The notes beneath the pieces are model-generated. The model did not search any database and was not told the DNA's origin. It worked only from the letters and a program-made list of their open reading frames with translations. DNA of 22,216 nucleotides, taken from positions 1 to 22,216 of the forward strand of contig JBDKRC010000057.1 of NCBI GenBank assembly GCA_039683575.1. The letters run 5' to 3'. Made by a program: the position numbers and the translations under genes. The DNA comes from Armatimonadia bacterium (GTDB taxonomy: Bacteria; Armatimonadota; Zipacnadia; Zipacnadales; UBA11051). Position 1 is the stretch's first letter. Each line of letters begins with the position of its first letter. This document shows positions 2,583 through 18,009 of this stretch, one piece after another.

Positions 2583-2612
2583 ATGGCATCCGTTCTCCTT
2601 TTGTTCTATAAT
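2583..2612 (+). promoter_or_regulatory. putative sigma70 promoter for the aldolase operon
   Basis: Perfect TATAAT at 2607-2612 with a weak -35 candidate (ATGGCA, 18-bp spacer), about 50 bp before ATG 2663. Confidence 0.5.
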
Positions 2613-2662: not shown

Positions 2663-3436
2663 ATGATCGATAAGCAACAGCGGCTGGCCGAACTGGTCGC
2701 GATGTCGCGGCGGCTCGGCGCTCCCGAGGCCGATTGCGCCATGCTCGGTGAGGGCAACACCTCGACCTGCGCCAGTGAACACACATTCTTTGTCAAGGCC
2801 AGTGGCTATCAGTTGCCGTGCATCGAGGAGCAGGGCTTCACCGAGGTGCGGTTTGACACGGCGTTGTCTCTGCTTGAGGCCGATGACATCTCCGATGCGA
2901 ACGTGAAGAATGTGTTGCACGAGGCCCAGGTTGACCCGAACGCGCCTCGGCCGTCGGTTGAAACCATTCTACACGCACTGCTGCTGCGTCTGCCCGGCGT
3001 GGAGTACGTGGCGCATACCCATCCGACCATGGTGAACGCGGTGCTGTGCGCCAAGGAGGGCAAAGAGGCCTTCCGCGGGCGGCTGTTCCCCGACGAGATC
3101 GTGTGCTGCGGCTCGAACTATGTCTGGATCCCGTTCACCGACCCGGGCGCGCCACTGGCGCGGAAGGTGAATGATGAGGTGGCCCAGTTCGTCAGCGACA
3201 ACGGCTTCCTCCCCAAGGTCATCCTGATGCAGAACCACGGGATGATCGCCTTCGGTCCGACGACGGCGGCAGTGGAGAACGCGACGCTGATGATGGTCAA
3301 GACGGCGCGGGTGTTGCTCGGGACGTATGCGCTTGGTGGACCCAACTTCCTGCCTGAGACTATCGTGGACCGCATCGTGTCCCGACCAGATGAGAAATAT
3401 CGCGAGCAACTGCTCGAGTCCTTCAAGAGAGGCTGA
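2663..3436 (+). CDS. class II aldolase/adducin family protein (RhaD-like)
   Basis: Motifs 'GEGNTS', 'VKASG', 'PSVETILH', 'HTHP' and 'MQNHG' (Zn-binding His triad). Start placed at ATG 2663 after GGTGAG. Confidence 0.9.
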   Translation: MIDKQQRLAELVAMSRRLGAPEADCAMLGEGNTSTCASEHTFFVKASGYQLPCIEEQGFTEVRFDTALSLLEADDISDANVKNVLHEAQVDPNAPRPSVETILHALLLRLPGVEYVAHTHPTMVNAVLCAKEGKEAFRGRLFPDEIVCCGSNYVWIPFTDPGAPLARKVNDEVAQFVSDNGFLPKVILMQNHGMIAFGPTTAAVENATLMMVKTARVLLGTYALGGPNFLPETIVDRIVSRPDEKYREQLLESFKRG

Positions 3437-3441
3437 TCAGC

Positions 3442-5169
3442 ATGTCTTTTGCCAGTTTCCGCAGTGGACAAGATCCCATCCCCGCCGTTAACCACGTCTG
3501 GCACCTGTATGGCGAAGGACTGGATAGCGTCGGCAAGGATGCTAGCTATGAATCGAAGCCGATGCCGGAATACGGCGCCGATGAGCTGCTCGCGCGAGTG
3601 GACGCCTGTGGGCTGTGCTTCTCTGACGTGAAGGTCATCCGGCAGGGCGGTTCACATCCCCGGCTGTACAACCGAGACCTCGCCAATGACCCCATCATCC
3701 TCGGCCATGAGGTCGGCATGACCATCGTGGGCGTGGGCGAGAACATGAAGTCACAGTTCGAGGTCGGCGACCGGTTCGTCATCCAGGCCGACATCTATCA
3801 CAAGGGCGTCAATCTCGCTTTCGGTTACATGCTGCCCGGTGGCCTTGAGCAGTACGTCAAGCTGGGCGAAGAGGTCCTCCGTGGCGACGACGGTTGCTAC
3901 CTGATTCCTGTCCACGAGGGAACTGGCTATGCCGAGGCGGCGCTGGCCGAGCCGTGGGCGTGCGTGGTGCGGGCCTACCGCGACACCCGGCGCAGCGGAC
4001 TGAAGCAGGGCGGCAAGGCGTGGATAGTGGGCAGCCGTGAAGGTGAGCGCTATAGCTACGAGATGGGCGGCATGGACACAACCACGCTGCCGAGTGAACT
4101 GGTGGTGACGAATTGCCCACAGCGTTTCGTTGAATCTTTGACCAACCTGGCCGAGATCGCGAGCATCAAGCTCTCAAATGCCGACGGCGAGGACTACGAA
4201 GCCATCGCCCAGAGGCATGCACCGGATGGTTTTGACGAGATCATTGTTCTGGGCGGCGACGCGGCACTGATCGAGACCTTGTCCAAGCTTCTCGGCAAGG
4301 ACGCCGTGATGACCATCATCCGCGAGGAGCCCCTGGACCGCATGGCTGAAATCGACGTAGGCCGGGTGCACTACGACGCCCACCAGTACGTCGCGGCCAG
4401 CCCCGCTCGGCCCCTTGGAGGCTATCAGCACCCGCGGCCACTGAAGCTTCAGCAGGACGGCCTGTGCTGGATTTGCGGGGCGGGCGGCCCGATGGGCATG
4501 ATGCACGTCCAGCTTGCCATCGAAGCGTCCGATGGTCCGCGAACCGTTGTCTGCACCGATATTGACACCGACCGTCTGAGCCGCATCCCGATCCGCTTTG
4601 GCGACGCGGCCAAGAAGCGTGGTTGCGAACTGATCCTGCTCAACCCGAAGGAACTGGGCGACCAGTTCGAGGTTGAACTGAACAGGATCGCGCCCGAGGG
4701 TTACGACGACGTCGTCTGTCTCGTCCCGGTACCTGTGATCATCAGCCAATGCAGCCGCTTCCTCGGCAAGCGCGGTGTGTTCAACATTTTCGCCGGTGTG
4801 GCGCGTGGCACGATGGCGAAGATGGACATGAACAAGGTCATCGAGAACAATGTGCGCTTCTTCGGCAGCAGCGGGTCTTCGATAGACGACCTGAAGATGA
4901 CCCTGAGCCTGGCCGAGCGTGGCGAACTCTCGCCGAACATGGCCGTTGCAGCTGTGGGCGGCATCGAGGCTGTCAAAGACGGGCTGACGGCCGTTTCCGA
5001 GAGCGCCATGCCGGGGAAGATCGTCATCTACCCGCACATCATGAACCTTCCCATGACCCCGCTGCCGCAGCTCAAGGATGTGCTGCCCGATGTCGCGGCG
5101 AAGCTCGGTCCGGACGACACTTGGACCCGTGAAGCGGAGCAGGCGTTGCTCCAGCATTTCCTCGGATAA
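3442..5169 (+). CDS. Zn-dependent medium-chain dehydrogenase, L-sorbose-1-phosphate reductase (SorE)-like, with duplicated Rossmann domain
   Basis: Motifs 'CGLCFSD', 'LGHE', 'LAEPWAC', the SorE-like 'GAGGPMG' and 'VCTDID'. Length 575 aa, far longer than a typical ~350-420 aa MDR. Confidence 0.85.
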   Translation: MSFASFRSGQDPIPAVNHVWHLYGEGLDSVGKDASYESKPMPEYGADELLARVDACGLCFSDVKVIRQGGSHPRLYNRDLANDPIILGHEVGMTIVGVGENMKSQFEVGDRFVIQADIYHKGVNLAFGYMLPGGLEQYVKLGEEVLRGDDGCYLIPVHEGTGYAEAALAEPWACVVRAYRDTRRSGLKQGGKAWIVGSREGERYSYEMGGMDTTTLPSELVVTNCPQRFVESLTNLAEIASIKLSNADGEDYEAIAQRHAPDGFDEIIVLGGDAALIETLSKLLGKDAVMTIIREEPLDRMAEIDVGRVHYDAHQYVAASPARPLGGYQHPRPLKLQQDGLCWICGAGGPMGMMHVQLAIEASDGPRTVVCTDIDTDRLSRIPIRFGDAAKKRGCELILLNPKELGDQFEVELNRIAPEGYDDVVCLVPVPVIISQCSRFLGKRGVFNIFAGVARGTMAKMDMNKVIENNVRFFGSSGSSIDDLKMTLSLAERGELSPNMAVAAVGGIEAVKDGLTAVSESAMPGKIVIYPHIMNLPMTPLPQLKDVLPDVAAKLGPDDTWTREAEQALLQHFLG

Positions 5170-5209
5170 TCTACCGCTCCGCACCGCGGAGCACAGACTG
5201 TGAGTGGTT

Positions 5210-6007
5210 ATGATGGCTGAAACTCGTCTTGCCGGCAAAATCGCGCTGGTCACAGGAGGCGCCCAGGGCCTCGGAGCAGCACTGTGCGAGCGGCTTGCCC
5301 GCGAGGGCGCGAACGTCGTGGTGCTGGACCTCAATGCTGCTGGCGCCCAGGAGACGGCCGCGAAACTGGCCGCTGACTATGGCGTGCAGGTTGTCGGGCT
5401 GGGCTGCGACATTACGAGCGAAGAGAGCGTCGCGGCCGCCTTCGAGCAGATCAGGACCCAGTTCGGTCGCCTGGACATCTGTGTCAGCAACGCCGGCATA
5501 CTCATGTCCGGCGAGATCACTGAGTTCGACGTGGCCAAGTGGCGCAAAGTGGTGGAAGTGAACCTCGTCGGCTACATGATCGTTGCCAAGTACGCGGCGA
5601 AGATCATGATCCCGCAGGGCTCAGGCGTGATCGTGCAGATCAACAGCAAGTCCGGCAAGAAGGGCAGCAACAAGAATAGCGCATACGCTGCCAGCAAGTT
5701 CGGCGGTATCGGCCTGACCCAGAGCCTGGCACTTGAATTGGCGCCATACAAGATCCGCGTCAACGCCCTGTGCCCCGGCAATCTGCTGGACTCGCCGCTA
5801 TGGGTGGACAGTCTCTACGAGCAGTACGCCAAGCGCTGGAACATGACGGTGGAGCAGGTGCGGCAGAAGTACCTCGACCAGGTGCCGCTGCATCGTGGTT
5901 GCGCGTACGAAGACGTCGCTAACGCGATGGTCTTCATGTGCCTGGACGACTCGTCCTATATTACCGGCCAGGCCCTCAACGTAGACGGAGGACAGACGAT
6001 GCACTAG
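5210..6007 (+). CDS. srlD: sorbitol-6-phosphate dehydrogenase-like SDR
   Basis: TGGAQGLG and NAG motifs plus the SrlD-characteristic 'QINSKSGKKGSNKNSAYAASKFGG', 'GNLLDSPLW' and 'YLDQVPLHRGCAYEDV'. Start could be 5204, 5210 or 5213. Confidence 0.85.
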   Translation: MMAETRLAGKIALVTGGAQGLGAALCERLAREGANVVVLDLNAAGAQETAAKLAADYGVQVVGLGCDITSEESVAAAFEQIRTQFGRLDICVSNAGILMSGEITEFDVAKWRKVVEVNLVGYMIVAKYAAKIMIPQGSGVIVQINSKSGKKGSNKNSAYAASKFGGIGLTQSLALELAPYKIRVNALCPGNLLDSPLWVDSLYEQYAKRWNMTVEQVRQKYLDQVPLHRGCAYEDVANAMVFMCLDDSSYITGQALNVDGGQTMH

Positions 6008-6031
6008 CTTGTGCTGTCTCGGTTGAACCCC

Positions 6032-6067
6032 AAAGCGCCTGTGGGAACTTCCCCAGGCGCTTTTTTT
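6032..6067 (+). terminator. Rho-independent terminator of the sugar operon
   Basis: AAAGCGCCTG(T)GGGA-act-TCCCCAGGCGC hairpin followed by T7, 25 bp after the srlD stop. Confidence 0.85.
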
Positions 6068-6976: not shown

Positions 6977-7621
6977 ATGCGCAGGGGCTTCACTCTTATT
7001 GAGCTGTTGGTGGTGATCGCGATCATAGCGATCCTGGCGGCCATTCTGTTCCCGGTCTTTGCCAAGGCCCGGGAGAAGGCGCGCCAATCGAACTGTCTAT
7101 CCAACGTCCGCCAGATCGGCACCGCGCTGGCCATGTATACCGATGACTATGACGAGACGCTGCCGCGTTACAGCAACGGCACCGTCATGGTCAGCGGTAG
7201 CCCGCAGATTCAGACCTGGGCACGCGTCCTCAAGCCCTACGTCAAGAACGATCAGATCTTCCTCTGCCCCAGCAAGAAAGCGACAGGCTGGATGGGCGAG
7301 GCCGACGCAGACAGCGTCTGGGCGCCCGGCGGCTATGGCGTCAACTCGGGCTATCTTCTCACCGGCACAGGCTACAGCGTAGTGGCGCTCTCCCAGGTCG
7401 ATGACCCTGCAGGCACCATTGCCGCCGGCGAGCGCGCAGGGCTGAACACAGCGCGCCTGTATACCCCCCAAAGCGAAGGCGGCGCCGGCGCGAACCCGCC
7501 GTGCAATGTGGACACCCGCCATAACGACGGCTCCAACTTTCTCTTCCTGGACGGCCACGCCAAGTTCTTCGCAAAAACCGGCGCGTGGATGAAGGATGAT
7601 AGCATGTGGGACTGGAACTAG
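6977..7621 (+). CDS. prepilin-type N-terminal cleavage/methylation protein with H-X9-DG motif (DUF1559-like), copy 1
   Basis: [10 protein letters not shown] type IV pilin leader; 'QIFLCPS'; '[16 protein letters not shown]'; GGAGG RBS. Confidence 0.95.
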
Positions 7622-7696: not shown

Positions 7697-8314
7697 ATGC
7701 GCCGTGGTTTCACACTCATTGAGCTGTTGGTGGTCATAGCGATAATCGCCATTCTCGCCGCCATTCTCTTCCCTGTCTTCGCCAAGGCTCGTGAAAAAGC
7801 CCGCCAATCAAGCTGCCTGTCAAACATCAAGCAGATCTGCCTGGCGACTATGCAGTATGCCCAGGACTATGATGAGACGCTGCCCTCTTACTATAGCGGC
7901 GCTCCCCGCGTCAACGTACAGTCCCGCATTCAGCCCTATCTGAAGAACCTGCAGATCTGGGTCTGCCCCTCCGCCTCGGCCGTATACGGCATCTACTGGG
8001 ACGGCAATGCCGGCTGGCCCCCCACCATCTTTGGCCCCCAGGGCTCCTACGGCTGGAGCAACCGCGTCATCAACGGAGTCCGACTCGGCCAGCTCCAGAC
8101 GCCCGCCGAGACCGGGATGTGGTCAGACGCGGTCATCACCACCAGCGGCGCGTTCACGATCTTGTGGGAGAACAACTACTACCGCACCGCCGCGCCCCAC
8201 AATGACGGTGGCAACATGGGCTTCTGCGACGGCCATGCCAAGTGGCTCAACAAGCAGGACTTGTATGTTGGTACGCCCAATGCGTCACCCGCGGCGCCGT
8301 GGGACAAGCTGTAA
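7697..8314 (+). CDS. prepilin-type N-terminal cleavage/methylation protein with H-X9-DG motif (DUF1559-like), copy 2
   Basis: Same leader as copy 1; 'QIWVCPS'; '[16 protein letters not shown]'; AGGAGG RBS. Confidence 0.95.
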
Positions 8315-8418: not shown

Positions 8419-9423
8419 CTACGCCTTCTTCAGCCAGGGCATCATGGCCCGCAGCCTCTGCCCTACTTCCACGATCGGGTGCTCGTCGCCCTCGCGCAGC
8501 AGCGCGTTGAAGCACGGGCGGCCGGTCATGTTCTCGAGAATCCATTCCTTGGCGAAGGAACCGTCCTGCACCTCACGCAGCATCTCCCACATCTCGTCAC
8601 GGGTCTCGTCGGTGATGATGCGCTTGCCGCGGCTCAGGTCGCCATACTCGGCGGTGTCCGACACGCGCCGCCGCATGCCCTCGATGCCGAAGTTGTGGAT
8701 CAGGTCCAGGATCAGGCCCAGCTCGTGGCAGACCTCAAAGTAAGCGATCTCCGGCTGGTACCCGGCCTCGACGAGGGTGTCAAAACCCGCGATGATGAGT
8801 TCAGACACGCCGCCGCACAGCACCGCCTGCTCGCCGAACAAGTCGGTCTCGGTCTCTTCGGCGAAGGTCGTCTCGAGGATACCCGCCTTGGAGGCCTTCA
8901 GGCCCTTGCCATAGGCCAGCGCGAGCTTCATCGCGTTGCCGGTGGCGTCCTGGTAGATCGCGACCAGCGACGGCACGCCGGTGTCGGCGATGTAGCACTG
9001 GCGCACGAGCGCGCCGGGGCCCTTCGGGGCGATCATGAAGACGTCAACATCCTTGGGCGGCACGATCTGGCCGTAGTGGATGTTGAAGCCGTGCGAGAAA
9101 ATGAGCGCCTTGCCGGCGGTCAGGTTCGGCTCGATGAAAGCCTTGTAGACCGACGCCTGGATGTGATCCTGGGTCAGGATCTGGATCAGGTCGGCCTGCT
9201 TAGTGGCGGTGGCGGAGTCCACGACGTCCCAGCCGTCGTCAATGGCGATCTGATAGTTCGGGGACGCCTGGATCTCGGACACGACAACGTCGAGCCCGCT
9301 GTCGCGCAAGCAAAGCGCCTGCGCGCGGCCCTGAATGCCGTAGCCGATGATCGCAATCTTCTTGCCCTTCAGCACGCTCAAGTCCGCGTCATTGTCGTAG
9401 TACATCTTGGGTCCTTCAGACAT
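8419..9423 (-). CDS. ilvC: ketol-acid reductoisomerase (class I)
   Basis: Motifs '[12 protein letters not shown]', 'FSHGFNIH', 'MIAPKGPG', '[16 protein letters not shown]' and 'SDTAEYG'. Start ATG 9423 with GAGGAGG RBS. Confidence 0.97.
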
Positions 9424-9447
9424 GGGAAGCCTCCTCAATAGTGGGCG

Positions 9448-9816
9448 CTACACTGCGCCTTCCTTATGTTCGTCTCTGGGCGCGTTGCGCACAAACACCC
9501 GCCCGTAGATGATGCCGAGAATAATGCCAACCACTGCAAACAACCCGATATTGGCCCAAAGCACCGCCGTCCGATGCAGCCCCACATACCCCGTCTGCGG
9601 GTCATAGCGGATCAGGTAACTGTAGAGCAGCCACAGACCATAGATGACCGGGCCCAACAGCCCGATTGCGAGGCCTTTCGCCAGCCCCTCCACCAGAGCC
9701 TTCCTCGCCGCGCCGACAGCCCCGCCAACCAGCAACCCCAGAACGGGCAGCACAACCGCCAGCCACTTGATAACCAGCGCAAACTTGTTAAGATCAATGA
9801 TTTCGTGCATTGTCAA
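9448..9816 (-). CDS. small membrane protein (about 3 TM helices), hypothetical
   Basis: Three hydrophobic segments; tightly packed and co-oriented within the ilv operon. Confidence 0.75.
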   Translation of the reverse strand: MTMHEIIDLNKFALVIKWLAVVLPVLGLLVGGAVGAARKALVEGLAKGLAIGLLGPVIYGLWLLYSYLIRYDPQTGYVGLHRTAVLWANIGLFAVVGIILGIIYGRVFVRNAPRDEHKEGAV

Positions 9817-9822
9817 TCGCGT

Positions 9823-10512
9823 CTATCCGAGGTACTTGCTCATGAAGCTGCGAATGCCATCGATCATCCGAGCCACTGCTGTGGGATCAATCACATCATG
9901 GTGACGTCCGCTCTCGTCTACCGTCAAAATATCTTCGGAGTTGCTGAGCCGACCATGGTCTACATCATTTCGCAAATCGCCCCAACTCCTAATCTCGCTC
10001 CACTGTGGCTGGTTATAGACGCTTTGGCTTTTGAGGCCCTCATTGAGGAAATTGATGCCACTGTCGCGTTTGGCGATGTTGCCCACATGAGACGTGTAGA
10101 GTTTGCGCAGTGTGTCCTCAAGCACGCCTCCACAGAGGGAAACAGCAGCCAAATGGAATCCATCCCTATGGAGATGCTCTGCCATCGATAGCAGATCGTC
10201 GAATGCTTCAGACAGTATTGCGTCGCGAAGCCGATCGAATCCGCTTACGTAATGATCTCGCGCGGCTTCAACTATGGCGAGACAGAACGACGGACGTGCT
10301 ACTTCCGGCGTCTCCAACTCCTTATTCAGCTTCTCGTAGAAGACGTCCTTGTTTGACTTCAGCGCATCAATCAGCGCCAAAGCCTTCGTGGCAGCGCCAA
10401 GAGTCCTGGCAGCATTCGCCGGATCATAGCCTGTTACACGGCTAGGCTCCGGCAGCCCCTGCAACTCAGAGGCAATTTCCCGGAACCGAGTGTCCAAGTC
10501 CTGCCTAGTCAT
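9823..10512 (-). CDS. HEPN-superfamily (DUF4145-like) protein with R-X4-H motif
   Basis: 'AEHLHRDGFHLAAVSLCGGVLEDTLRKL' helix and 'DLRNDVDHG' motif; GGGGG RBS-like sequence; lower GC than neighbours. Confidence 0.75.
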   Translation of the reverse strand: MTRQDLDTRFREIASELQGLPEPSRVTGYDPANAARTLGAATKALALIDALKSNKDVFYEKLNKELETPEVARPSFCLAIVEAARDHYVSGFDRLRDAILSEAFDDLLSMAEHLHRDGFHLAAVSLCGGVLEDTLRKLYTSHVGNIAKRDSGINFLNEGLKSQSVYNQPQWSEIRSWGDLRNDVDHGRLSNSEDILTVDESGRHHDVIDPTAVARMIDGIRSFMSKYLG

Positions 10513-10551
10513 GATGGCCCCCTGTACAGTGCGTAGACAACTCTGCTTGGC

Positions 10552-11193
10552 CTACCGTCCCGCCCGCCTAAGCAACTCCTCCACATCCACCCCGTTGATC
10601 GTCATCCCCCGAATGTTGCAGCCTTCCAGCCGCACGTTGCTCATATCCGTTCCCCAAAAGTACGCCCCGCGCATCGAGCCGCGGTCGAACCTCGTTCCGT
10701 CCAGGTCACACGAGTTGAGCCGCGCCTCGTCCATCTCGCACCAGTCCAGCCGCAGGTATGGCATCTCGCAGTTCTCGAAGCGGCTGTCGCGGAACTCGCA
10801 CCGCTCGAACCGGCTGCCCCGCAGGTCGCTGGATTTCCAGGTCTGCTCCTGCGCCTCACAGCGCTCAAAGGTCAAGTCCTTTAGGCTGACTCCCGTGAAC
10901 TGGCTACCATCAAGCAATCCACGCTCAAACTTCGCCTGTTTCAGCTCCGCCTCGCTCGCCAGCAGCCCCGGCAGCTTCACCTGGCGCAGGCTCAGCCCAG
11001 GCAACTCGGAACTCTCCACACTCATCTCATCCCCGCGAGCACCCCGCATGCTGGCCTTCTCAAAGACACAGTCCGTGAAGCTCGCCCGAGTCAAGTCGCA
11101 CTTGTTGAACTTCGTCTCTTTCAGGTCCCGACCCTCAAACTGCGCCCAAACCGGCAGCGCCACGACCATCAGCAACCAGATCCCGTGTCGCAT
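10552..11193 (-). CDS. pentapeptide repeat protein with N-terminal signal peptide
   Basis: Regular 5-residue periodicity (CDLTR ASFTD CVFEK ASMRG...); typical C-terminal 'GMTINGVDVEELL'; leader MRHGIWLLMVVALPVWA. Confidence 0.9.
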   Translation of the reverse strand: MRHGIWLLMVVALPVWAQFEGRDLKETKFNKCDLTRASFTDCVFEKASMRGARGDEMSVESSELPGLSLRQVKLPGLLASEAELKQAKFERGLLDGSQFTGVSLKDLTFERCEAQEQTWKSSDLRGSRFERCEFRDSRFENCEMPYLRLDWCEMDEARLNSCDLDGTRFDRGSMRGAYFWGTDMSNVRLEGCNIRGMTINGVDVEELLRRAGR

Positions 11194-11214
11194 CTGTCTC
11201 TCGCCTCTTCTGAA

Positions 11215-11242
11215 CCTGATCCCTGAAACCTGGTACCTGCCT
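11215..11242 (-). repeat. heptamer run (CCTGNNN)x4 directly after the ilvN stop
   Basis: cctgatc-cctgaaa-cctggta-cctgcct, abutting the stop codon at 11243-11245. Confidence 0.7.
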
Positions 11243-11728
11243 CTACGTCTTCTGCATCCCTCGCGTCAGCACGACCTTGCCGGTTCGCACCATCTCGCTG
11301 ATGCCAAACTCGCGCAGGTTGGCCACGAAGGCATCCACCTTCCCGGAATCCCCTACGACCTGCAGAATCAGCGTCCCGTTGCCAATATCCACGACGTCGG
11401 CGCGGAAGATCTGGCAAAGCTGCAGGATGTCGGTCCGGCGCTCGCGGGTTCCCTCGAGCTTGACCATACACAGTTCCCTCTCGACTACCGCCTCACCTGT
11501 ATGGTCTATGACCGTTTGCACATCATGGAGCTTGGAAAGCTGCTTGACGATCTGCGCGAGGGTCGCGTCGTCTTCGCCCACCACGATTGTGATCCGCGAG
11601 ACGCTCTCGTCCTGGGTGGTGCTAACGGTGAGGCTCTCGATGTTGAAGCCACGCCGGGCGAATAGACCGGCGACGCGGGTCAGGACCCGCGGTCGGTTCT
11701 TCACTAGAGCGGAGATGGTATGTTTCAT
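11243..11728 (-). CDS. ilvN: acetolactate synthase small (regulatory) subunit
   Basis: 'ISALVKNRPRVLTRVAGLFARRGFNIESL' ACT domain; 'ERELCMVK'; 'EMVRTG'; GGAGG RBS. Confidence 0.97.
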   Translation of the reverse strand: MKHTISALVKNRPRVLTRVAGLFARRGFNIESLTVSTTQDESVSRITIVVGEDDATLAQIVKQLSKLHDVQTVIDHTGEAVVERELCMVKLEGTRERRTDILQLCQIFRADVVDIGNGTLILQVVGDSGKVDAFVANLREFGISEMVRTGKVVLTRGMQKT

Positions 11729-11767
11729 TGCTCAGCCTCCCATTATGTGCGCGCGGGGAACAACTCG

Positions 11768-12493
11768 TCAGCTTCCGGTGCAGATACTCAACCTGTGGCC
11801 TGCCCAGGCCCCTGCCCCCGTCCCATGTTGCACTTTCACTCGCTCCGGCGTCTCCGCGTAGATGGCGTAGCGGTCATTGCCATTGCGCAGGAGCACCTTC
11901 GCCCCCGCCAGCAGACCGTTTGTTATGTCCTCATGGAAAGTCATCGGCACGCGCGCTTCGGACAACTGCTCTGCGGCCTGCTCCTCGGTCCCGAAATACC
12001 GTGTGGACTTGCCGCCGAAGTCATACGAGATCGGCCTGGCGTCCGGCATCTGGTCGGTGAATACCGCCAGCACCTCCGCCGGCAGCCCCTTCTGCTTCTC
12101 GATCAGATAGCACTGCGCGTAGCGGAAACGATTGTTGCGCTGCAGCACCAGGGCGTGGTAGTCGTACCCGTCCCAGACGTACTCACCGGCCTTAAGCGAG
12201 GCGTCCCGCATCGTGTAGTCGGGCGACGTGAGTACTGAAACCAGGTAGATGCCCGGACCGACCCGTACCTCCAGCGGCACCCGGCCGCGATAGTACTTCC
12301 CGGCGAAGGCGCTGAGCCCAATCTCCGAGCTGCTGCTTTCACCCACGCCGATAGCGCTCTGTGGCGTCACATACACCTGCGCCCCCACTGCCCCGTAGGC
12401 ATATACCCGCAGCGGCTCATCGGCGGCCCAGCTCGCCGTCAAAGAGGCCAGCGCGACCCCGGCCAGCAGCAATCGCCAAGTCAGGAGCTTCAT
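11768..12493 (-). CDS. secreted hypothetical protein with PEGA-like N-terminal domain
   Basis: Signal peptide MKLLTWRLLLAGVALASLTASWA; 'GAQVYV...GRVPLEVRVGPGIYLVSV' resembles the PEGA consensus; GAGGAG RBS overlapping the ilvB stop. Confidence 0.75.
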   Translation of the reverse strand: MKLLTWRLLLAGVALASLTASWAADEPLRVYAYGAVGAQVYVTPQSAIGVGESSSSEIGLSAFAGKYYRGRVPLEVRVGPGIYLVSVLTSPDYTMRDASLKAGEYVWDGYDYHALVLQRNNRFRYAQCYLIEKQKGLPAEVLAVFTDQMPDARPISYDFGGKSTRYFGTEEQAAEQLSEARVPMTFHEDITNGLLAGAKVLLRNGNDRYAIYAETPERVKVQHGTGAGAWAGHRLSICTGS

Positions 12494-12506
12494 CTGTGCT
12501 TACTCC

Positions 12507-14273
12507 TCAGTGCCCGGCCTCCCGGGGGCATTCGCCCGCCGGTGTGCAGCCGCAACCTTCAGAGTGCGAGTACGCACCTTTGTGGCTCACGGTCGGCTGC
12601 AGCATGGTTTCCTCGATGCTCTGGCCGCCGGGAATCATCGGGAACACGTTCTCTTCACGCGCCACGTGGAAATTCATGATCACTGGCCGGTCGTTGACTT
12701 CCATCGCCTTTTCGATGATGCCTGTCACTTCATCCGGGTTGCCGGTCTCAAAGCCGACGCTGTCATAGGCCTCCGCCAGCTTCACAAAGTCCGGCAGGTT
12801 ACACAGGTTCACGCCGGAGTACCGCTTGTCATAGAACAGGTCCTGCCACTGGCGCACCATGCCCAAAAAGCAGTTGTTCAGGATCACGATCTTCACGGGC
12901 AGGTTGTTGTGCCGGCCGGTGGCCATCTCCTGGATGTTCATCTGGATTGAGCCATCACCGGCAATGTTGACCACTGTCTTATCCGGGTTGCCGAACTGCG
13001 CCCCGAGGGCCGCCGGATGGCCGTAACCCATGGTCCCCAGCCCGCCGGAGGAGAGCCAGTGCCGCGGCTTGTCGATCTTCATGTACTGCGCCGCCCACAT
13101 CTGGTGCTGTCCCACTTCTGTGCAGACGATGGCGTCGCCCTTCACGATCTCGTACAGCTTCTCAAGCACGAACTGCGGCGGCATGCCATCATTGCCCCAC
13201 GTGTAAGACAGGGGCATCTCCCGCTTCTTCTGCACCAGCGCTTCTTCCCACGCCGTCCGCTTACGGGGCTTGAGCAGCGGGATCATCGCTTCCAGTGCCG
13301 TGCGGGCGTCTGACACGATCGGCACTTCCGCCACACGGATCTTGTCAATCTCCGCGGCGTCCACGTCCACATGGATGACCTTGGTGCCCGGGGAGAACCG
13401 CCGGGTGTCCCCGACGACCCTGTCATCGAAGCGCGCGCCCAACACCAGCATCACGTCACACTCGTGCAGCGCCCAACTGGCAGACGCATGGCCGTGCATG
13501 CCGGGCATGCCCATGGCTAGCTCCGAAGTCTCCGGGAAGCCGCCCTTACCGTTGAGAGTGTTCACGACGGCGATGTTGCACACGTCCGACATCTGCTTGA
13601 CCAGGCCGGACGCGCCGGAGGAGATCACGCCGCCGCCGATGTAGATGAGAGGGCGCTCGGCTTTGTTGATCAGGTCCGCCGCTCGCTCGACGTCACCCGC
13701 GTCAGGCAACAGTGGCTCTTGATAGCCATCCAGGGCCTTGATGTCCCGGTCCGGATAGGGCACGAGCGCCTTCTGGATGTCCGCGGGCAGGTCAATGAGC
13801 ACGGGCCCGGGCCGGCCGCTGCGCGCCAGCAGGAAGGCCTCGCGCACCGTATTCACCAACTCGGCCTCATCGGTTACGAGGTAGTTGTGCTTGGTCACAG
13901 GCATCGTGATGCCGGTGATGTCGGCTTCCTGAAAGGAGTCCCGGCCGATGGCCGCCCGCGGCACCTGTCCCGTGATTGCCACCATCGGGATCGAGTCCAT
14001 GTAGGCAGTCGCAATGCCCGTTACGAGGTTGGTTGCGCCCGGGCCACTGGTCGCCACACACACGCCGACTCTGCCGGTCGAGCGCGAGTAGCCGTCCGCC
14101 ATATGGGCCGCGCCCTGCTCGTGCCGAGGGAGGATCCCTTTGATCGGGAAATCGTACAGAGCATCAAAGAAGGGGATGATCTGCCCGCCCGGATACCCGA
14201 ACAGGATATCCACTCCCTCTTCCTGAAGCACGTTCAGCACGGCGAGCGCGCCGGACATTGGTTGCTTTGACAT
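12507..14273 (-). CDS. ilvB: acetolactate synthase large subunit (biosynthetic)
   Basis: Motifs 'FGYPGG', 'RHEQGAAHMADGY', 'TSGPGATN', 'GARFDDRV' and the ThDP motif 'GDGS...NN'. Start ATG 14273 with GGAGG RBS. Confidence 0.97.
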   Translation of the reverse strand: MSKQPMSGALAVLNVLQEEGVDILFGYPGGQIIPFFDALYDFPIKGILPRHEQGAAHMADGYSRSTGRVGVCVATSGPGATNLVTGIATAYMDSIPMVAITGQVPRAAIGRDSFQEADITGITMPVTKHNYLVTDEAELVNTVREAFLLARSGRPGPVLIDLPADIQKALVPYPDRDIKALDGYQEPLLPDAGDVERAADLINKAERPLIYIGGGVISSGASGLVKQMSDVCNIAVVNTLNGKGGFPETSELAMGMPGMHGHASASWALHECDVMLVLGARFDDRVVGDTRRFSPGTKVIHVDVDAAEIDKIRVAEVPIVSDARTALEAMIPLLKPRKRTAWEEALVQKKREMPLSYTWGNDGMPPQFVLEKLYEIVKGDAIVCTEVGQHQMWAAQYMKIDKPRHWLSSGGLGTMGYGHPAALGAQFGNPDKTVVNIAGDGSIQMNIQEMATGRHNNLPVKIVILNNCFLGMVRQWQDLFYDKRYSGVNLCNLPDFVKLAEAYDSVGFETGNPDEVTGIIEKAMEVNDRPVIMNFHVAREENVFPMIPGGQSIEETMLQPTVSHKGAYSHSEGCGCTPAGECPREAGH

Positions 14274-14380
14274 GGTAGTACCTCCAGATCCGCCGGAACT
14301 CAAAGAGCTCGGGGCCCATGATCACGATCCTGCTTCGGCTCCGAAACGTCGTTGCCTCCCCTGACCCCTGCCATTTGGGA

Positions 14381-14706
14381 GGGGTCACTGCCCCGGACGG
14401 CCCCCCAACACGCGTGTCATTCTGAGGAGCGTCGTTTGCGACGAAGAATCTCCGGCCCCCACCAAGCCCCGAGATCCTTCACTTCGTTCAGGATGACAAC
14501 CTCGTACGCCAGCAGTCCCTGACCCCTGATCCCTGCCGTTTCGGGGTCACTGCCCCCGACGGCCCCCCAACACGCGTGTCATTCTGAGGAGCGTCGTTTG
14601 CGACGAAGAATCTCCGGCCCCACCAAGCCACCGCGATCCTTCACTTCGTTCAGGATGACAACCTCGCACGCCAGCCGTCCCTGACCCCTGATCCCTGATC
14701 CCTGCC
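14381..14706. repeat. tandem duplication of a 162-bp unit, each carrying an 84-bp TGTCA...TGACA palindromic REP-like element and CCCTGAY heptamers
   Basis: Copies start at 14381 and 14543 (GGGGTCACTGCCCC) and are near-identical. Elements TGTCATTCTGAGGAGCGTCGTTTGCGACGAAGAATCTC...GATCCTTCACTTCGTTCAGGATGACA lie at 14415-14498 and 14577-14660. Confidence 0.93.
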
Positions 14707-14707
14707 T

Positions 14708-16369
14708 CTACTGCATTACTGCGCCCTTGGCCGCGCTGCTTACGCCCTTGGCATATCGCGCCAGCCAGCCGGTCTTGATCCGCGGCTCCGGCGCCACCCA
14801 CGCGGCCCGCCGCCGCGCCAACTCTGCCTCGTCCACCTGCAGGTCAAGCGTCCGCGCGTCGAGGTCCGCGGCAATGATGTCGCCATCCTGTACCAGCGCC
14901 AGAGGCCCGCCTGATGCCGCCTCGGGCGAAATGTGCCCGATGGACAGGCCCTGCGTCCCGCCGGAGAACCGGCCGTCGGTCAGCAGCCCCACCGTCTCGG
15001 CCTTGCCGATCCCGGCCAGCGCCGCCGTCGGGTTTAGCCCCTCGCGCATCCCGGGGCCGCCCTTGGGCCCTTCATAGCGCAGTACAATCCACGCCCCGTC
15101 GTCAACCTTCCCGTCCAGGATCGCCTTCATGACGTCTTCTTCGCAATCAAAGCACAGCGCCGGCCCGGTGAACTGCCGCATATGCGCCTTAACCGCCGAC
15201 TGCTTGATGACCGCACCCTCAGGGCACAGGCTCCCGCGCAGGATGGCAATGCCGCCCTCGTTGTGGTAGGCCCGGTTAAGCGGCCGAACGACCTCATGGT
15301 CGCTGATATGACCATCTGCGGCGATCTCACTGATCATCTTGCCGCTGCAGGTCACATTGTCATCCAGCATGTCCTTGATCACATTCAGGACGCCAGGGAT
15401 GCCGCCCGCCCATTCCAGGTCTTCCATGAAGTGCTCACCCGACGGCCGCAGATGGCAAAGCTGCGGCGTAACCTTTGAGAGCTCGTCGAAAGTCTCGAAC
15501 GCAATGTCCACGCCCGTCTCATACGCGATAGCCGGGATATGCAGGGTCGTATTGGTCGAACCACCAAGCACCATATCCATGCGGATGGCGTTGCGGATCG
15601 CCTGGGCGGTCATGATCTTGCGCGGGGTCAGGTCCTCGGCCACCATCCCGACGATGCGCTCACCGGACTCAAACCCGATTCGCTGCTTCTTGGCCATGCC
15701 GGCCAGCGCCGTAGCACAACCCGGCAGGCTCATCCCCATGGCCTCGGTCAGACACTGCATCGTGTTCGCGGTGTAAAGCCCCTGGCAGGAGCCGCAGCCA
15801 GGGCAAGCGGCAGCCTCAAGCGCCGCCAGTTCCTCATCGTCAATCTCGCCCGCACGGTACCGGCCCACGGCCTCAAACGTGTCCTTAACCAGGTCCAGCC
15901 GCCGCCCACGGTGCCGGCCGGTGATCATCGGCCCCGCGGTGACAACGATAGCCGGAATGTCCAGCCTCCCCGCCGCCATGAGCATCCCGGGGGTGATCTT
16001 GTCGCAGTCCGTCAGGAGCACCAGGCCGTCAAACCCGTGCGCCCGCGCCATGCTCTCGACGCTGTCCGCGATCAGCTCGCGGCTGGGCAGCGAGTAGTAC
16101 ATGCCCACATGCCCCATGGCGATTCCATCGCAGATGGCGGGCACGCCAAAGTTCATGGGTACGCCACCACCACTGCAGATGCCCTGCTCCACCGCGCGCC
16201 CAAGCTGCCCCAGCCCGATGTGTCCGGGTACAACGTCGCTCCAGGCATTGGCGATGCCGATGAAGGGCTTGGTCTTCAGTTGCTTCTCGGTATAGCCGCA
16301 AGCATAAAGCAGTGCCCGCGACGGTGCGCGAGTGTAACCTTCGACTACCGGACCGCTGTACTTCTTCAT
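14708..16369 (-). CDS. ilvD: dihydroxy-acid dehydratase
   Basis: Motifs '[10 protein letters not shown]', 'CDKITPG', '[16 protein letters not shown]', 'GGSTN', '[12 protein letters not shown]' and 'TDGRFSG'. Start ATG 16369 (MKKYS) with GGAGG RBS. Confidence 0.97.
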
Positions 16370-16467
16370 GATGGCCTCCGTTACGTCGTTGGAGGGGCCG
16401 AGCTTCAGCCGGCCCGCCGTTATCACCGACAACCTCTCGCCCGCCCTCAACCCCACCCCACCCCAGA

Positions 16468-16762: not shown

Positions 16763-16783
16763 TCATGACCGAATTGTATGGCC

Positions 16784-16812
16784 AGTATAGTCGCAGCATG
16801 CTTCTTCGTCAA
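16784..16812 (-). promoter_or_regulatory. sigma70 promoter of the T-box/ilv operon
   Basis: Minus strand TTGACG-N17-TATACT, about 20 nt upstream of T-box stem I. Confidence 0.85.
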
Positions 16813-16908
16813 GGCAACCCCATCGAATTCTTCAGCGTCTACAGGCAGGACACGAGGGCTCGGCAGCCAACAATAACGTTAACATACTATTCAGCGGAGA
16901 TGATTGCC

Positions 16909-18009
16909 ATGTGGATCGCGTGCTGGAACTGCGGGCAGGATGTCTGGTTCGAAACGCAGACAATGTGCCGCCACTGCGACGCCCCCACCCGGCGCTGCGC
17001 CGACTGCATCAATTACGACGCCAAAACCTCAACCTGCCGGGACCTCAATATCGACGTCGCCCCCGAAGATGCCACAAATCCGAGCCGGCTCTCGCTCTCT
17101 ATGACCTGCACTTCCTATGGCATGACTGACCAGGCCGCCATGCGCCAGGGGGCGGCTGTCGCCAAAGCCCCTGCAACCCCGGCCGCTCCAGCGGCCCCCC
17201 AGGCTGCAGCGGCGCCCGCTCCTCAGATCTCCGCCACTGACGAATACATCACCATCCGCCGCGAGCCGCCGCTGAAGCGCCCCAAACACCCGGTCGTCAT
17301 CGCCCATCGCGGCGATTCGGCCGCTGCGCCAGAGAACACTCTCTCCGCCTTCACCTCCGCGGTACAAAGCGGCGCCCACGCCATTGAGTTTGATGTCCAT
17401 GTCACCGCCGACGGCCACCCGGTCGTTATCCACGATGCCACCGTGGACCGCGTCACCGATGGCTCCGGCGCCGTGGCCGACATGACCCTGGCGGAGATCA
17501 AAGCTCTGGACGCCGGAGGCTGGTTTGCCGGACCGTACGAGGGCGAGCAAATACCCACCCTTGACGAGGCAATCGAGGCCCTTCCGGCTCCCACGGCCCT
17601 GTTCGTGCACCTCCGCGCCCATGAGAACGCCAGCGACTGCTGGGAGCGCGCCGTCGTGGAGGCCATCGGCCGCCACGACGCCCGCAAACGCACCGCCATC
17701 ACCAACCACACCCGCCACGGGCTGCAGCGCGTCCGCGAACTCGACCCCAAGATACGCCTCTGCTGGATTCCCGTCGGTGGCCAGCCAGGCCAGGAGTACA
17801 TTGACGACACGCACCTGTTAGGCTGCCGCTTCCTGCAACCGCGCCTCACCGAGATAGACGAAGCGTTCGTGGCCTATGCGCATGAGAAGGACCTCTGGGT
17901 GAACGCCTTCTGGGCCGACACCGAGGAAGACATGCAGCGCATGATCGCCCTCGGTGTGGATGGCATCATAACCAACTACCCGCGCCGGTTGCGGGAGTTG
18001 CTGCGTTAG
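16909..18009 (+). CDS. glycerophosphodiester phosphodiesterase (GDPD) family protein with N-terminal Cys-rich zinc-finger-like domain
   Basis: GDPD motifs 'IAHRGDS', 'PENTLSAF', 'IEFDV', 'VIHD' and 'GVDGIITNYP'. N-terminus has CWNC, CRHC, CADC plus 2 further Cys, then an Ala/Pro linker. Start ATG 16909 after GGAGA; the 16765 start would overlap the ilv promoter. Confidence 0.88.
   Translation: MWIACWNCGQDVWFETQTMCRHCDAPTRRCADCINYDAKTSTCRDLNIDVAPEDATNPSRLSLSMTCTSYGMTDQAAMRQGAAVAKAPATPAAPAAPQAAAAPAPQISATDEYITIRREPPLKRPKHPVVIAHRGDSAAAPENTLSAFTSAVQSGAHAIEFDVHVTADGHPVVIHDATVDRVTDGSGAVADMTLAEIKALDAGGWFAGPYEGEQIPTLDEAIEALPAPTALFVHLRAHENASDCWERAVVEAIGRHDARKRTAITNHTRHGLQRVRELDPKIRLCWIPVGGQPGQEYIDDTHLLGCRFLQPRLTEIDEAFVAYAHEKDLWVNAFWADTEEDMQRMIALGVDGIITNYPRRLRELLR

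Follow-up and report, generated by a model that had tools for sequence, protein, structure and literature searches.

A stretch of DNA from an Armatimonadia bacterium (contig JBDKRC010000057.1 of assembly GCA_039683575.1, 22,216 nucleotides, here called the window) carries a short operon of three genes at positions 2663 to 6067. The genes encode a class II aldolase, a long zinc-dependent dehydrogenase and a short-chain dehydrogenase (SDR). With a probability that falls only a little short of even, this operon is the core of a phosphorylative route for a ketose of the L-rhamnose type (a 6-deoxy or L-series sugar), in which it would stand in for RhaD or RhaEW. The observations behind this reading are the families of the three proteins, the conservation and coupling of their genes, several gene fusions, the rhamnose genes found around relatives of the operon, and a distribution complementary to that of RhaEW. 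The substrates and the order of the steps are proposed on this basis.

A point of reference is provided by the sor and srl operons of enteric bacteria. There, a phosphotransferase system (PTS) makes L-sorbose-1-phosphate, SorE reduces it to glucitol-6-phosphate, and SorD or SrlD oxidises this product to fructose-6-phosphate. The preliminary description of the window had named the last two genes of the operon SorE-like and SrlD, and had placed the first in the RhaD/AraD family of class II aldolases. The three genes are:

2663..3436, + strand: predicted class II aldolase of the RhaE type, 257 residues (matches to PF00596 and to NCBIfam models)
3442..5169, + strand: predicted long zinc-dependent medium-chain dehydrogenase, SorE/YggP-like, 575 residues (Pfam, alignments and AlphaFold model)
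5210..6007, + strand: predicted SDR of the SrlD type, 265 residues (NF009050, profile match to a Protein Data Bank (PDB) chain, and motifs)

In the long dehydrogenase, Pfam recognises a GroES-like domain (ADH_N) at residues 45-143 and a Rossmann domain (ADH_zinc_N) at residues 350-491, with about 200 residues between them. No NCBIfam model comes near its cut-off. The best annotated full-length relatives, found in plasmid records, are sorE of Klebsiella, Citrobacter and Serratia together with E. coli yggP (two aligned pieces that together span 93-95% of the query, at 27-28% identity). Klebsiella SorE, with 410 residues, aligns over 95% of the window protein: SorE residues 9-311 match 22-320 (29% identity) and SorE residues 166-403 match 326-572 (26%), the C-terminal tail with its G-[DQ]-R-[FY]-V-I-Q-A motif included. 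SorE residues 166-311 are thus used twice, once against 190-320 and once against 326-480. Because SorE aligns to two successive parts of it, the window protein can be described as a SorE-type enzyme with a duplicated nucleotide-binding domain. The AlphaFold (AF2) model, made from 18 homologues (predicted local distance difference test score, pLDDT, 89.6), likewise predicts an extra alpha/beta domain at about residues 190-335.

The two copies differ in their motifs. The first Rossmann copy has no GxGxxG; the second retains GAGGPMG at 346-352 and an aspartate, Asp373, after strand beta-2. Cys59, His89, Glu90, the GxGxxG at 346-352 and Asp373 are invariant in the 18 sequences. From knowledge of the fold, we take Cys59 and His89-Glu90 to be the catalytic zinc ligands, and Asp373 presumably sets a preference for NAD. 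The degenerate first copy is itself conserved across the family of long dehydrogenases; it might be regulatory, serve as a docking site for the SDR or hold a second ligand site. Structure searches gave no clue to the substrate: Foldseek with the AF2 model returned only generic zinc alcohol dehydrogenases of about 345 residues from the PDB (TM-score by target 0.71-0.82, 11-17% identity), and a sequence profile search of the same database matched almost solely the GroES-like part. Automated annotation in public databases gives homologues the name "L-sorbose 1-phosphate reductase" or "zinc-binding dehydrogenase".

The SDR is assigned more closely. Its Pfam family is adh_short, and it passes the NCBIfam model for sorbitol-6-phosphate dehydrogenase, NF009050, with 353.9 bits (cut-off 307). 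Among PDB chains, Erwinia SrlD (5o3z) scores highest, with 230 bits, and the runner-up has 160. Identity to the srlD genes of glucitol PTS operons is 46-48% over 96% of the protein, compared with 32% to SorD and 28-35% to RhaW domains from the same phylum. The catalytic triad of Ser146, Tyr159 and Lys163 is invariant. SDRs of the trio type were aligned with Pantoea SrlD, Klebsiella SorD, two RhaW domains and one aldolase-fused SDR. Four motifs (KFGG, GLTQS, GNLL-SP and VPL-RGC) are common to the trio type and Pantoea SrlD, and neither RhaW nor SorD has them. This sharing of motifs suggests that an SrlD-type substrate pocket has been conserved. Both dehydrogenases would use NAD, to judge from the aspartate after strand beta-2 in each.

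The aldolase matches PF00596 with 69 bits. Its top NCBIfam models are the N-terminal halves of bifunctional aldolase/SDR proteins, namely NF006190 (119 bits) and TIGR02632, which describes RhaEW (79 bits); the whole-protein cut-offs of such models are out of reach for half a fusion. Models for FucA, AraD, MtnB and OtnC reach only about 20-30 bits. The protein is accordingly a member of the RhaD/AraD superfamily whose nearest relative is RhaE, at a distance: identity to RhaE domains from the same phylum is only 24-30%, and the closest solved relative, 3m4r, is an uncharacterised protein. The window aldolase is a separate gene with no C-terminal SDR fused to it.

Taken together, these results uphold the family names given in the preliminary description, with one amendment. 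Model and motifs bear out the label SrlD (48% identity), and the aldolase superfamily is as stated, with RhaE as its nearest member. Full-length kinship of 26-29% over 95% of the protein likewise justifies the label SorE-like, except that the middle enzyme is a structural variant, with 575 residues in place of about 410 and a duplicated nucleotide-binding domain.

A trio that was not conserved across genomes would, by the preliminary description, have refuted its reading, but the trio is conserved. Loci of the long dehydrogenase were surveyed by a pattern scan with one genome per species. A confirmed locus was found in at least 557 species genomes, and counts of neighbouring genes were taken from the best 80 of these at least 557 loci. 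More than 3,000 homologues of the dehydrogenase occur among the candidates scored, the closest named ones from Armatimonadota. The best 80 loci belong to Armatimonadota, Chloroflexota (Anaerolineae, Thermoflexales and Caldilineae), WS1, Zixibacteria and "Zipacnadia".

An SDR is fused to the long dehydrogenase, or lies downstream of it on the same strand, in 65 of the 74 loci with enough downstream sequence (fused in 10, separate within 300 nt in 42, within 3 kb in 12, farther away in 1, none in 9). A same-strand aldolase is present in 45 of the 70 loci with enough upstream sequence: directly upstream in 30, farther upstream in 14, downstream in 1. The remaining 25 have no match of at least 150 bits, and two of them carry a divergent PF00596 gene directly upstream. 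The directly upstream homologues of the aldolase are 252-263 residues long.

Gene fusions provide further evidence of coupling. SDR domains are fused in 16 of the 120 best dehydrogenase homologues, giving proteins of about 842-860 residues. In genome G113, which is from the window's phylum, contig C199 encodes on one strand a PHP-like protein, a 653-residue aldolase-SDR fusion, an FGGY kinase and an L-rhamnose isomerase of the RhaA type; the long dehydrogenase of this genome is on a different contig. In the aldolase-SDR fusion, the SDR part shares 38% identity with the window SDR and 38% with SrlD, and is intermediate between SrlD and RhaW. Fusion partners of the SDR are thus the long dehydrogenase, in some genomes, and the aldolase, in another, so that the SDR may be the enzyme of the middle step. 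Triple or larger fusions were absent among homologues of 1008-2875 residues at E <= 1e-30, which is weak evidence.

Some operons contain the two dehydrogenases without the aldolase. On a plasmid of Deinococcus sp. AJ005, an SDR gene is accompanied by genes for a long dehydrogenase (34% identity over the full length, aligned in one piece), a GntR regulator and an FGGY kinase that belongs to a different subfamily. They face genes for a sugar ATP-binding cassette transporter, a ROK protein, a mannose-6-phosphate isomerase and an isomerase of the AGE family, and no aldolase is annotated in 19.6 kb of the plasmid. Two further loci (L063 and L065), both on short contigs, have dehydrogenase, SDR and FGGY kinase with no aldolase. 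Such operons suggest that the pair acts on the product of a kinase, a ketose phosphate, rather than on the product of an aldolase.

The preliminary description had called the operon self-contained. This holds for the operon in the window but not for its relatives, whose operons hold an L-rhamnose isomerase, a rhamnulokinase-like FGGY kinase and a DeoR regulator. A kinase encoded elsewhere is for this reason the likely source of the ketose phosphate. These neighbours were found by clustering the open reading frames (ORFs) around the 80 loci and scanning representatives for known families. RhaA-type isomerases occur in 4 of the 80 loci (682.7 bits, cut-off 572) and RhaI-type isomerases in another 4 of the 80 (575 bits, cut-off 531). 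In Chloroflexota, 11 loci have an FGGY protein just under the rhamnulokinase cut-off (490 bits, cut-off 528), and a DeoR regulator is likewise present in 11. Aldolases of this type lie in rhamnose gene clusters in L023, L036, L060, L059, L064, L077 and G113. The window aldolase itself has no rhamnose gene cluster around it, and the neighbours of the operon in Armatimonadota loci are unrelated housekeeping genes.

Two Chloroflexota clusters illustrate the arrangement, in which components of a complex resembling pyruvate dehydrogenase (PDH) also take part. In L060 the order is FGGY kinase, DeoR, RhaA, aldolase, a 447-residue protein, long dehydrogenase, DUF89 protein, E1 and E2. In L036 it is E1, long dehydrogenase, E2, E3, aldolase, SDR, RhaA and FGGY kinase. 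The PDH-like complex is represented in Chloroflexota loci by a fused E1 alpha-beta of about 700 residues (11 loci), E2 (7 loci) and E3 (at least 2 loci). Its genes are interleaved with those of the dehydrogenase and SDR in L017, L021, L026, L031, L036, L038, L040, L052, L053, L060 and L063. The window's own genome has a homologue of the fused E1 with 44% identity, at the start of contig C82.

The protein of about 447 residues has no confident family match and occurs in 22 loci, mostly directly upstream of the long dehydrogenase. Only a faint PHP match was obtained (E 0.0065), together with an invariant HxH motif. Its structural model (pLDDT 90.3) has as top Foldseek matches the nucleotide bisphosphate phosphatase 2yb1, 3e0f and RNase AM (TM-score by target 0.66-0.70), and by this model the protein is a PHP-type metal phosphoesterase. 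In genome G131, likewise from the window's phylum, it lies side by side with a long dehydrogenase and an FGGY kinase. This kinase, an orthologue of rhamnulokinase, shares 62.5% identity with the G113 kinase and 51% with a kinase from a Chloroflexota cluster. A homologue of the PHP-like protein is also present in the window's own genome, at a contig end (C336:10164-11522, minus strand, locus L094). Other recurrent neighbours are a DUF89/ARMT1 phosphatase (5 loci), members of the mannitol dehydrogenase family (5 loci) and a Tdh-like dehydrogenase (6 loci).

Genes of the URO-D/MtaA-like, methyltransferase type recur beside RhaI and beside the long dehydrogenase. Pfam identifies URO-D at C14:6397-7494 in the window's own genome, at L070:6791-7906, at L051:3404-4582 and in a cluster mate in L054; the gene at L043:3590-4651 was found by BLAST only. 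Their recurrence might be a sign that O-methylated deoxy sugars are handled.

The distribution of the genes was profiled with five queries, each run against one set of 151 genomes from the window's phylum; the threshold for the isomerases was E <= 1e-60. Carriers numbered 87 for the long dehydrogenase, 68 for RhaI, 40 for RhaA, 46 for RhaEW and 24 for the PHP-like protein. The long dehydrogenase is present in 38 of the 40 RhaA-bearing genomes, and RhaA or RhaI in 75 of its 87 carriers, against 32 of 64 non-carriers. The 107 isomerase-bearing genomes comprise 67 with the dehydrogenase only, 20 with RhaEW only, 8 with both and 12 with neither. Across the phylum, the long dehydrogenase and RhaEW are largely complementary. 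The PHP-like protein is confined to carriers of the long dehydrogenase (24 of 24 genomes in this sample). At the level of families, 20 of the 23 that mostly carry the dehydrogenase also mostly carry an isomerase; f3, f10 and f12 are the exceptions. A profile of PF00596 was uninformative, since 147 of the 151 genomes have some class II aldolase. An association of the dehydrogenase with RhaI alone was also considered and rejected; it appears only once RhaA-type isomerases are added.

The assembly that holds the window is 6.23 Mb long, in 352 contigs, and 96.4% complete. It contains an L-rhamnose isomerase of the RhaI type on another contig (544 bits, cut-off 531), whose gene adjoins two alpha-L-fucosidase genes and a URO-D-like gene. 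RhaEW was not found in this genome, and exactly one match to PF00596 is present in the assembly, the window aldolase. The best rhamnulokinase-like FGGY protein, on contig C278, reaches 290 bits against a cut-off of 528. It was not assigned as the kinase of the pathway, since its identity of 34-38% to the cluster kinases is too low. The C278 gene lies in a GntR-regulated cluster (C278:12294-18354, L092) with genes for a xylose-isomerase-like TIM barrel, a class III aminotransferase, an SDR, the FGGY kinase and an amidohydrolase. The cluster adjoins a gene with weak similarity to GH106 (alpha-L-rhamnosidase), and may be a separate amino- or deoxy-sugar pathway.

In the proposed route, an isomerase and an FGGY kinase encoded elsewhere would supply the ketose phosphate. 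The SorE-like dehydrogenase would use NADH to reduce the ketose 1-phosphate at its C2 carbonyl, and the SrlD-like SDR would re-oxidise the resulting (deoxy)hexitol phosphate at its far end with NAD+. The net effect of the pair would be a redox-neutral shift of the carbonyl group, like that of SorE and SorD or SrlD on L-sorbose-1-phosphate. Cleavage of a carbon-carbon bond would fall to the RhaE-type aldolase. The order kinase, dehydrogenase, SDR, aldolase is put forward tentatively; it is preferred on the ground that fusions link the SDR with both of the other proteins. A more conservative alternative is that the aldolase cleaves L-rhamnulose-1-phosphate directly.

Several lines of evidence favour this route. 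The closest characterised relatives of the two dehydrogenases, SorE and SrlD, act consecutively in one pathway. The PHP-like and DUF89 phosphoesterases that travel with the dehydrogenase may be signs of phosphorylated intermediates, and polyol dehydrogenases travel with it too. The window's genome has RhaI, lacks RhaEW and has one class II aldolase only. Gene context thus points to a 6-deoxy sugar rather than to the link with fructose-6-phosphate that the preliminary description had envisaged.

It is conceivable, if unlikely, that the genes form an undescribed rhamnose route in which the deoxy half does not end as free lactaldehyde. The pair would then convert a 6-deoxy-ketose phosphate to a methyl ketone, namely a 1-deoxy-hexulose 6-phosphate. 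The starting compound would be rhamnulose-1-phosphate, or 6-deoxy-L-sorbose-1-phosphate re-formed from dihydroxyacetone phosphate (DHAP) and lactaldehyde. The RhaE-like aldolase might cut the methyl ketone to hydroxyacetone and glyceraldehyde-3-phosphate, and in Chloroflexota the PDH-like E1, E2 and E3 might cut it to a tetrose 4-phosphate and acetyl-CoA. Proofreading or exit steps would fall to the PHP and DUF89 phosphoesterases. By reasoning from Fischer projections, hydroxyacetone and D-glyceraldehyde-3-phosphate could arise from the transposed product by aldol cleavage. Loss of the acetyl end from transposed L-rhamnulose-1-phosphate would leave D-threose-4-phosphate or L-erythrose-4-phosphate, not D-erythrose-4-phosphate, and 6-deoxy-L-sorbose-1-phosphate would match the stereochemistry of the natural substrates of SorE and SrlD.

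A number of observations weigh against a rhamnose-linked role for the operon. Of the 80 loci, just 8 have a rhamnose isomerase. The dehydrogenase is not associated with RhaI taken by itself, since it occurs in 38 of 68 RhaI genomes against a base rate of 87 in 151, and 12 of the 87 dehydrogenase carriers have neither RhaA nor RhaI at the threshold used. Presence of the genes is all-or-none by family, so that the profile reflects few independent events and its counts are not independent; Fisher values computed from them do not stand for probabilities. Among themselves the cluster kinases share 47-62% identity, but the C278 FGGY protein of the window's genome shares just 34-38% with them. If rhamnulose-1-phosphate is cleaved in the usual way, the pair competes with the aldolase for the same substrate, and the scheme then needs an unusual aldolase substrate. 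By the same Fischer reasoning, transposed rhamnulose-1-phosphate would reach no standard central metabolite without a further step. Finally, RhaW, which is 28-35% identical to the SDR, is described as oxidising lactaldehyde (PMC3870299), so homology to SrlD does not fix the substrate.

The main rival explanation, although doubtful, is that the trio is RhaEW split into separate proteins. The aldolase would cleave L-rhamnulose-1-phosphate to DHAP and L-lactaldehyde, and the SDR would oxidise the lactaldehyde to L-lactate. The long dehydrogenase would either reduce lactaldehyde to 1,2-propanediol, completing a dismutation, or oxidise lactate to pyruvate for the PDH-like complex. Such a division of labour would account for the complementary distribution of the trio and RhaEW, for the aldolase-SDR fusion in a rhamnose operon, with its SDR intermediate between SrlD and RhaW, for the presence of PDH-like E1, E2 and E3 in 11, 7 and at least 2 loci, and for the fact that a RhaI-bearing genome has the window aldolase as the sole class II aldolase found. 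However, we know of no zinc-dependent medium-chain lactate dehydrogenase, and the long dehydrogenase resembles SorE, a reductase of ketose 1-phosphates. In its substrate-binding half the SDR still bears the SrlD signature, and its identity to SrlD (48%) exceeds that to RhaW (28-35%). Operons with SDR, long dehydrogenase and FGGY kinase but no aldolase (Deinococcus, L063 and L065) do not fit a split RhaEW either, and the phosphoesterases and polyol dehydrogenases of the clusters are left unexplained by it. A precedent for the chemistry does exist, in that RhaEW is reported to form DHAP and lactate in vitro (PMC3870299).

An improbable alternative is a general shunt that is unrelated to rhamnose. 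In it, the aldolase would join or split DHAP and glyceraldehyde or another aldehyde, and the two dehydrogenases would link a hexose 1-phosphate to fructose-6-phosphate via a hexitol phosphate, in either direction; examples would be L-sorbose-1-phosphate or D-fructose-1-phosphate via glucitol-6-phosphate or mannitol-1-phosphate. Such a shunt would suit lineages without a rhamnose isomerase, which are represented by the 12 carriers mentioned above. It would also agree with the SrlD pocket motifs of the SDR and its match to the sorbitol-6-phosphate dehydrogenase model, with the position of the Armatimonadota operon alone among unrelated genes, and with the mannitol dehydrogenase-family genes that take the place of the aldolase in 5 loci. 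Against it, the window's genome has ordinary phosphofructokinase and class II fructose-bisphosphate aldolase, with two matches each, so that no bypass is called for; a bypass of central metabolism forced by the absence of these enzymes was rejected on the same count. The aldolase is nearest to RhaE, and enzymes of the RhaD and FucA types make 3R products, which do not lead to D-fructose-6-phosphate. The shunt would also make a coincidence of the rhamnose genes in related operons and of the distribution complementary to RhaEW. Much less likely still is an ordinary sorbose or glucitol pathway whose transporter or kinase has gone unrecognised, with the aldolase a mere neighbour. The SorE-like and SrlD-like assignments are what such a pathway would predict. 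Yet no match to the PTS protein HPr was found in the 96.4%-complete assembly, so a sorbose PTS elsewhere in the genome, which the preliminary description had allowed for, is rejected as an explanation of the two enzymes. No glucitol or sorbose PTS genes were seen in the 80 loci among annotated clusters present in at least 2 loci. The aldolase is linked or fused across phyla, and a whole extra domain sets the dehydrogenase apart from SorE.

Plant pectins and the envelopes of microbes and cyanobacteria contain L-rhamnose as a major deoxy sugar, and Armatimonadota and Anaerolineae are abundant, poorly cultured degraders of rhamnose-bearing polymers. The uncharacterised dehydrogenase family described here is found in 87 of 151 sampled Armatimonadota genomes and in at least 557 species genomes overall. 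If this family and its SrlD-like partner supply the missing downstream rhamnose enzymes where RhaD and RhaEW are absent, metabolic reconstructions of these phyla need correcting. New chemistry would then be possible, with a carbonyl transposition on a deoxy-ketose phosphate and perhaps a new cleavage reaction. The labels "sorbitol-6-phosphate dehydrogenase" and "sorbose-1-phosphate reductase" in phyla without a PTS would no longer be evidence of sorbitol or sorbose use. Since the proteins are soluble and L-rhamnulose-1-phosphate can be prepared with known coupling enzymes, the question can be tested directly.

The layout of the operon agrees with the preliminary description, which had placed three linked genes between a TATAAT promoter candidate and a strong terminator. 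The ORFs are co-directional on the plus strand (2621/2663-3436, 3442-5169 and 5204/5210-6007), with gaps of 5 nt and about 40 nt, in a window of about 61% G+C. The signals around them are:

2583..2612, + strand: sigma-70-like promoter candidate (-35 ATGGCA, 18-nt spacer, -10 TATAAT at 2607-2612; 10 of 12 matches)
5176..5192, + strand: GC hairpin in the spacer between dehydrogenase and SDR, 7-bp stem and 3-nt loop (read from the sequence)
6032..6067, + strand: intrinsic terminator (14-pair stem at 6032-6063, U7 tail)

The aldolase probably starts at the ATG at 2663, which has GGGTGAG 6 nt upstream; a GTG at 2621 is the alternative and marks the start of the longest ORF. The dehydrogenase begins 5 nt after the aldolase stop, and the SDR about 40 nt after the dehydrogenase stop, at the ATG at 5210 (a GTG at 5204 is possible). 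Five promoter-like sites were observed between 2300 and 6400, compared with 1.2 expected from shuffled sequences, so the site at 2583-2612 alone is weak evidence. The hairpin at 5176-5192 could be a processing or attenuation signal. A pattern scan overlooked the terminator at 6032-6067, and its stem was picked up by folding with shuffles: the minimum free energy is -25 kcal/mol (z -3.98), and 0 of 200 shuffles were equally stable.

The absence of a transporter or kinase, also claimed in the preliminary description, was borne out as far as family models reach: Pfam recognised none in 20 ORFs of the window, 5 of which matched no family. Upstream of the operon is a divergently transcribed gene of the NIF3 family. 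Downstream, an ORF without a family match is followed by two pilin-like DUF1559 genes in tandem (6977-7621 and 7697-8314). A prepilin-type N-terminal methylation motif is present in both, and the two products agree in every one of their first 38 residues and diverge thereafter. Genes for branched-chain amino acids occupy 8419-16456 on the minus strand: ilvC, for ketol-acid reductoisomerase (8419-9438), an acetolactate synthase-like thiamine pyrophosphate enzyme (12507-14303) and ilvD (14708-16456). The run is broken by a pentapeptide-repeat gene (10552-11193) and two ORFs without a family match. At 16765-18009 lies a gene for a glycerophosphodiester phosphodiesterase with its GDPD domain at residues 181-406, preceded by an N-terminal extension of about 170 residues that is first Cys-rich and then Ala/Pro-rich.

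No description of the trio or of the long dehydrogenase family was found in the literature, which was covered mostly at the level of titles and the first lines of abstracts; for yggP, literature listings gave nothing relevant. Comparison is therefore made with the systems from which the parts are known.

The Klebsiella sor operon is similar in that it, too, couples an SDR with a zinc-dependent medium-chain dehydrogenase of the SorE/YggP type. It differs in having a mannose-type PTS and the regulator SorC but no aldolase, whereas in the window's genome no HPr was found. SorE has 410 residues and a single Rossmann domain, whereas the window enzyme, at 26-29% identity, has 575 residues and an extra domain; SorD is just 32% identical to the window SDR. 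E. coli YggP, an uncharacterised SorE paralogue from the cmt region, is 27% identical over 93-94% of the protein, but has about 400-425 residues and no duplicated domain. Enteric SrlD, also called GutD (5o3z), shares 46-48% identity with the window SDR, which has the Ser-Tyr-Lys triad and all the SrlD-specific motifs. However, srlD sits in a glucitol PTS operon, srlAEB-gutM-gutR-gutQ in Pantoea, and the window SDR has no PTS context. SDRs of the window type have a SorE-like dehydrogenase and an aldolase as separate or fused partners, and their substrate may be a deoxy analogue.

The E. coli pathway of RhaA, RhaB and RhaD uses an isomerase and an FGGY kinase of the same families as those in the related clusters, and a class II aldolase. 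Unlike it, the present system has no RhaD orthologue and two extra dehydrogenases. RhaEW (YuxG) is described as a bifunctional enzyme, both aldolase for L-rhamnulose-1-phosphate and dehydrogenase for L-lactaldehyde (Rodionova et al. 2013, PMC3870299), an aldolase-SDR fusion that yields DHAP and lactate in vitro, its RhaW part oxidising lactaldehyde. The window aldolase matches RhaE halves, and aldolase and SDR are combined in rhamnose clusters here as well, even as a fusion in G113. In the window they are separate proteins, with 24-30% identity to RhaE and 28-35% to RhaW. RhaEW systems are without the SorE-like dehydrogenase and the PHP-type phosphoesterase, whereas the present system couples the first of these with aldolase and SDR, and often the second as well. 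The parts of the operon come from known families, and its logic resembles that of both the sor and the rha pathways.

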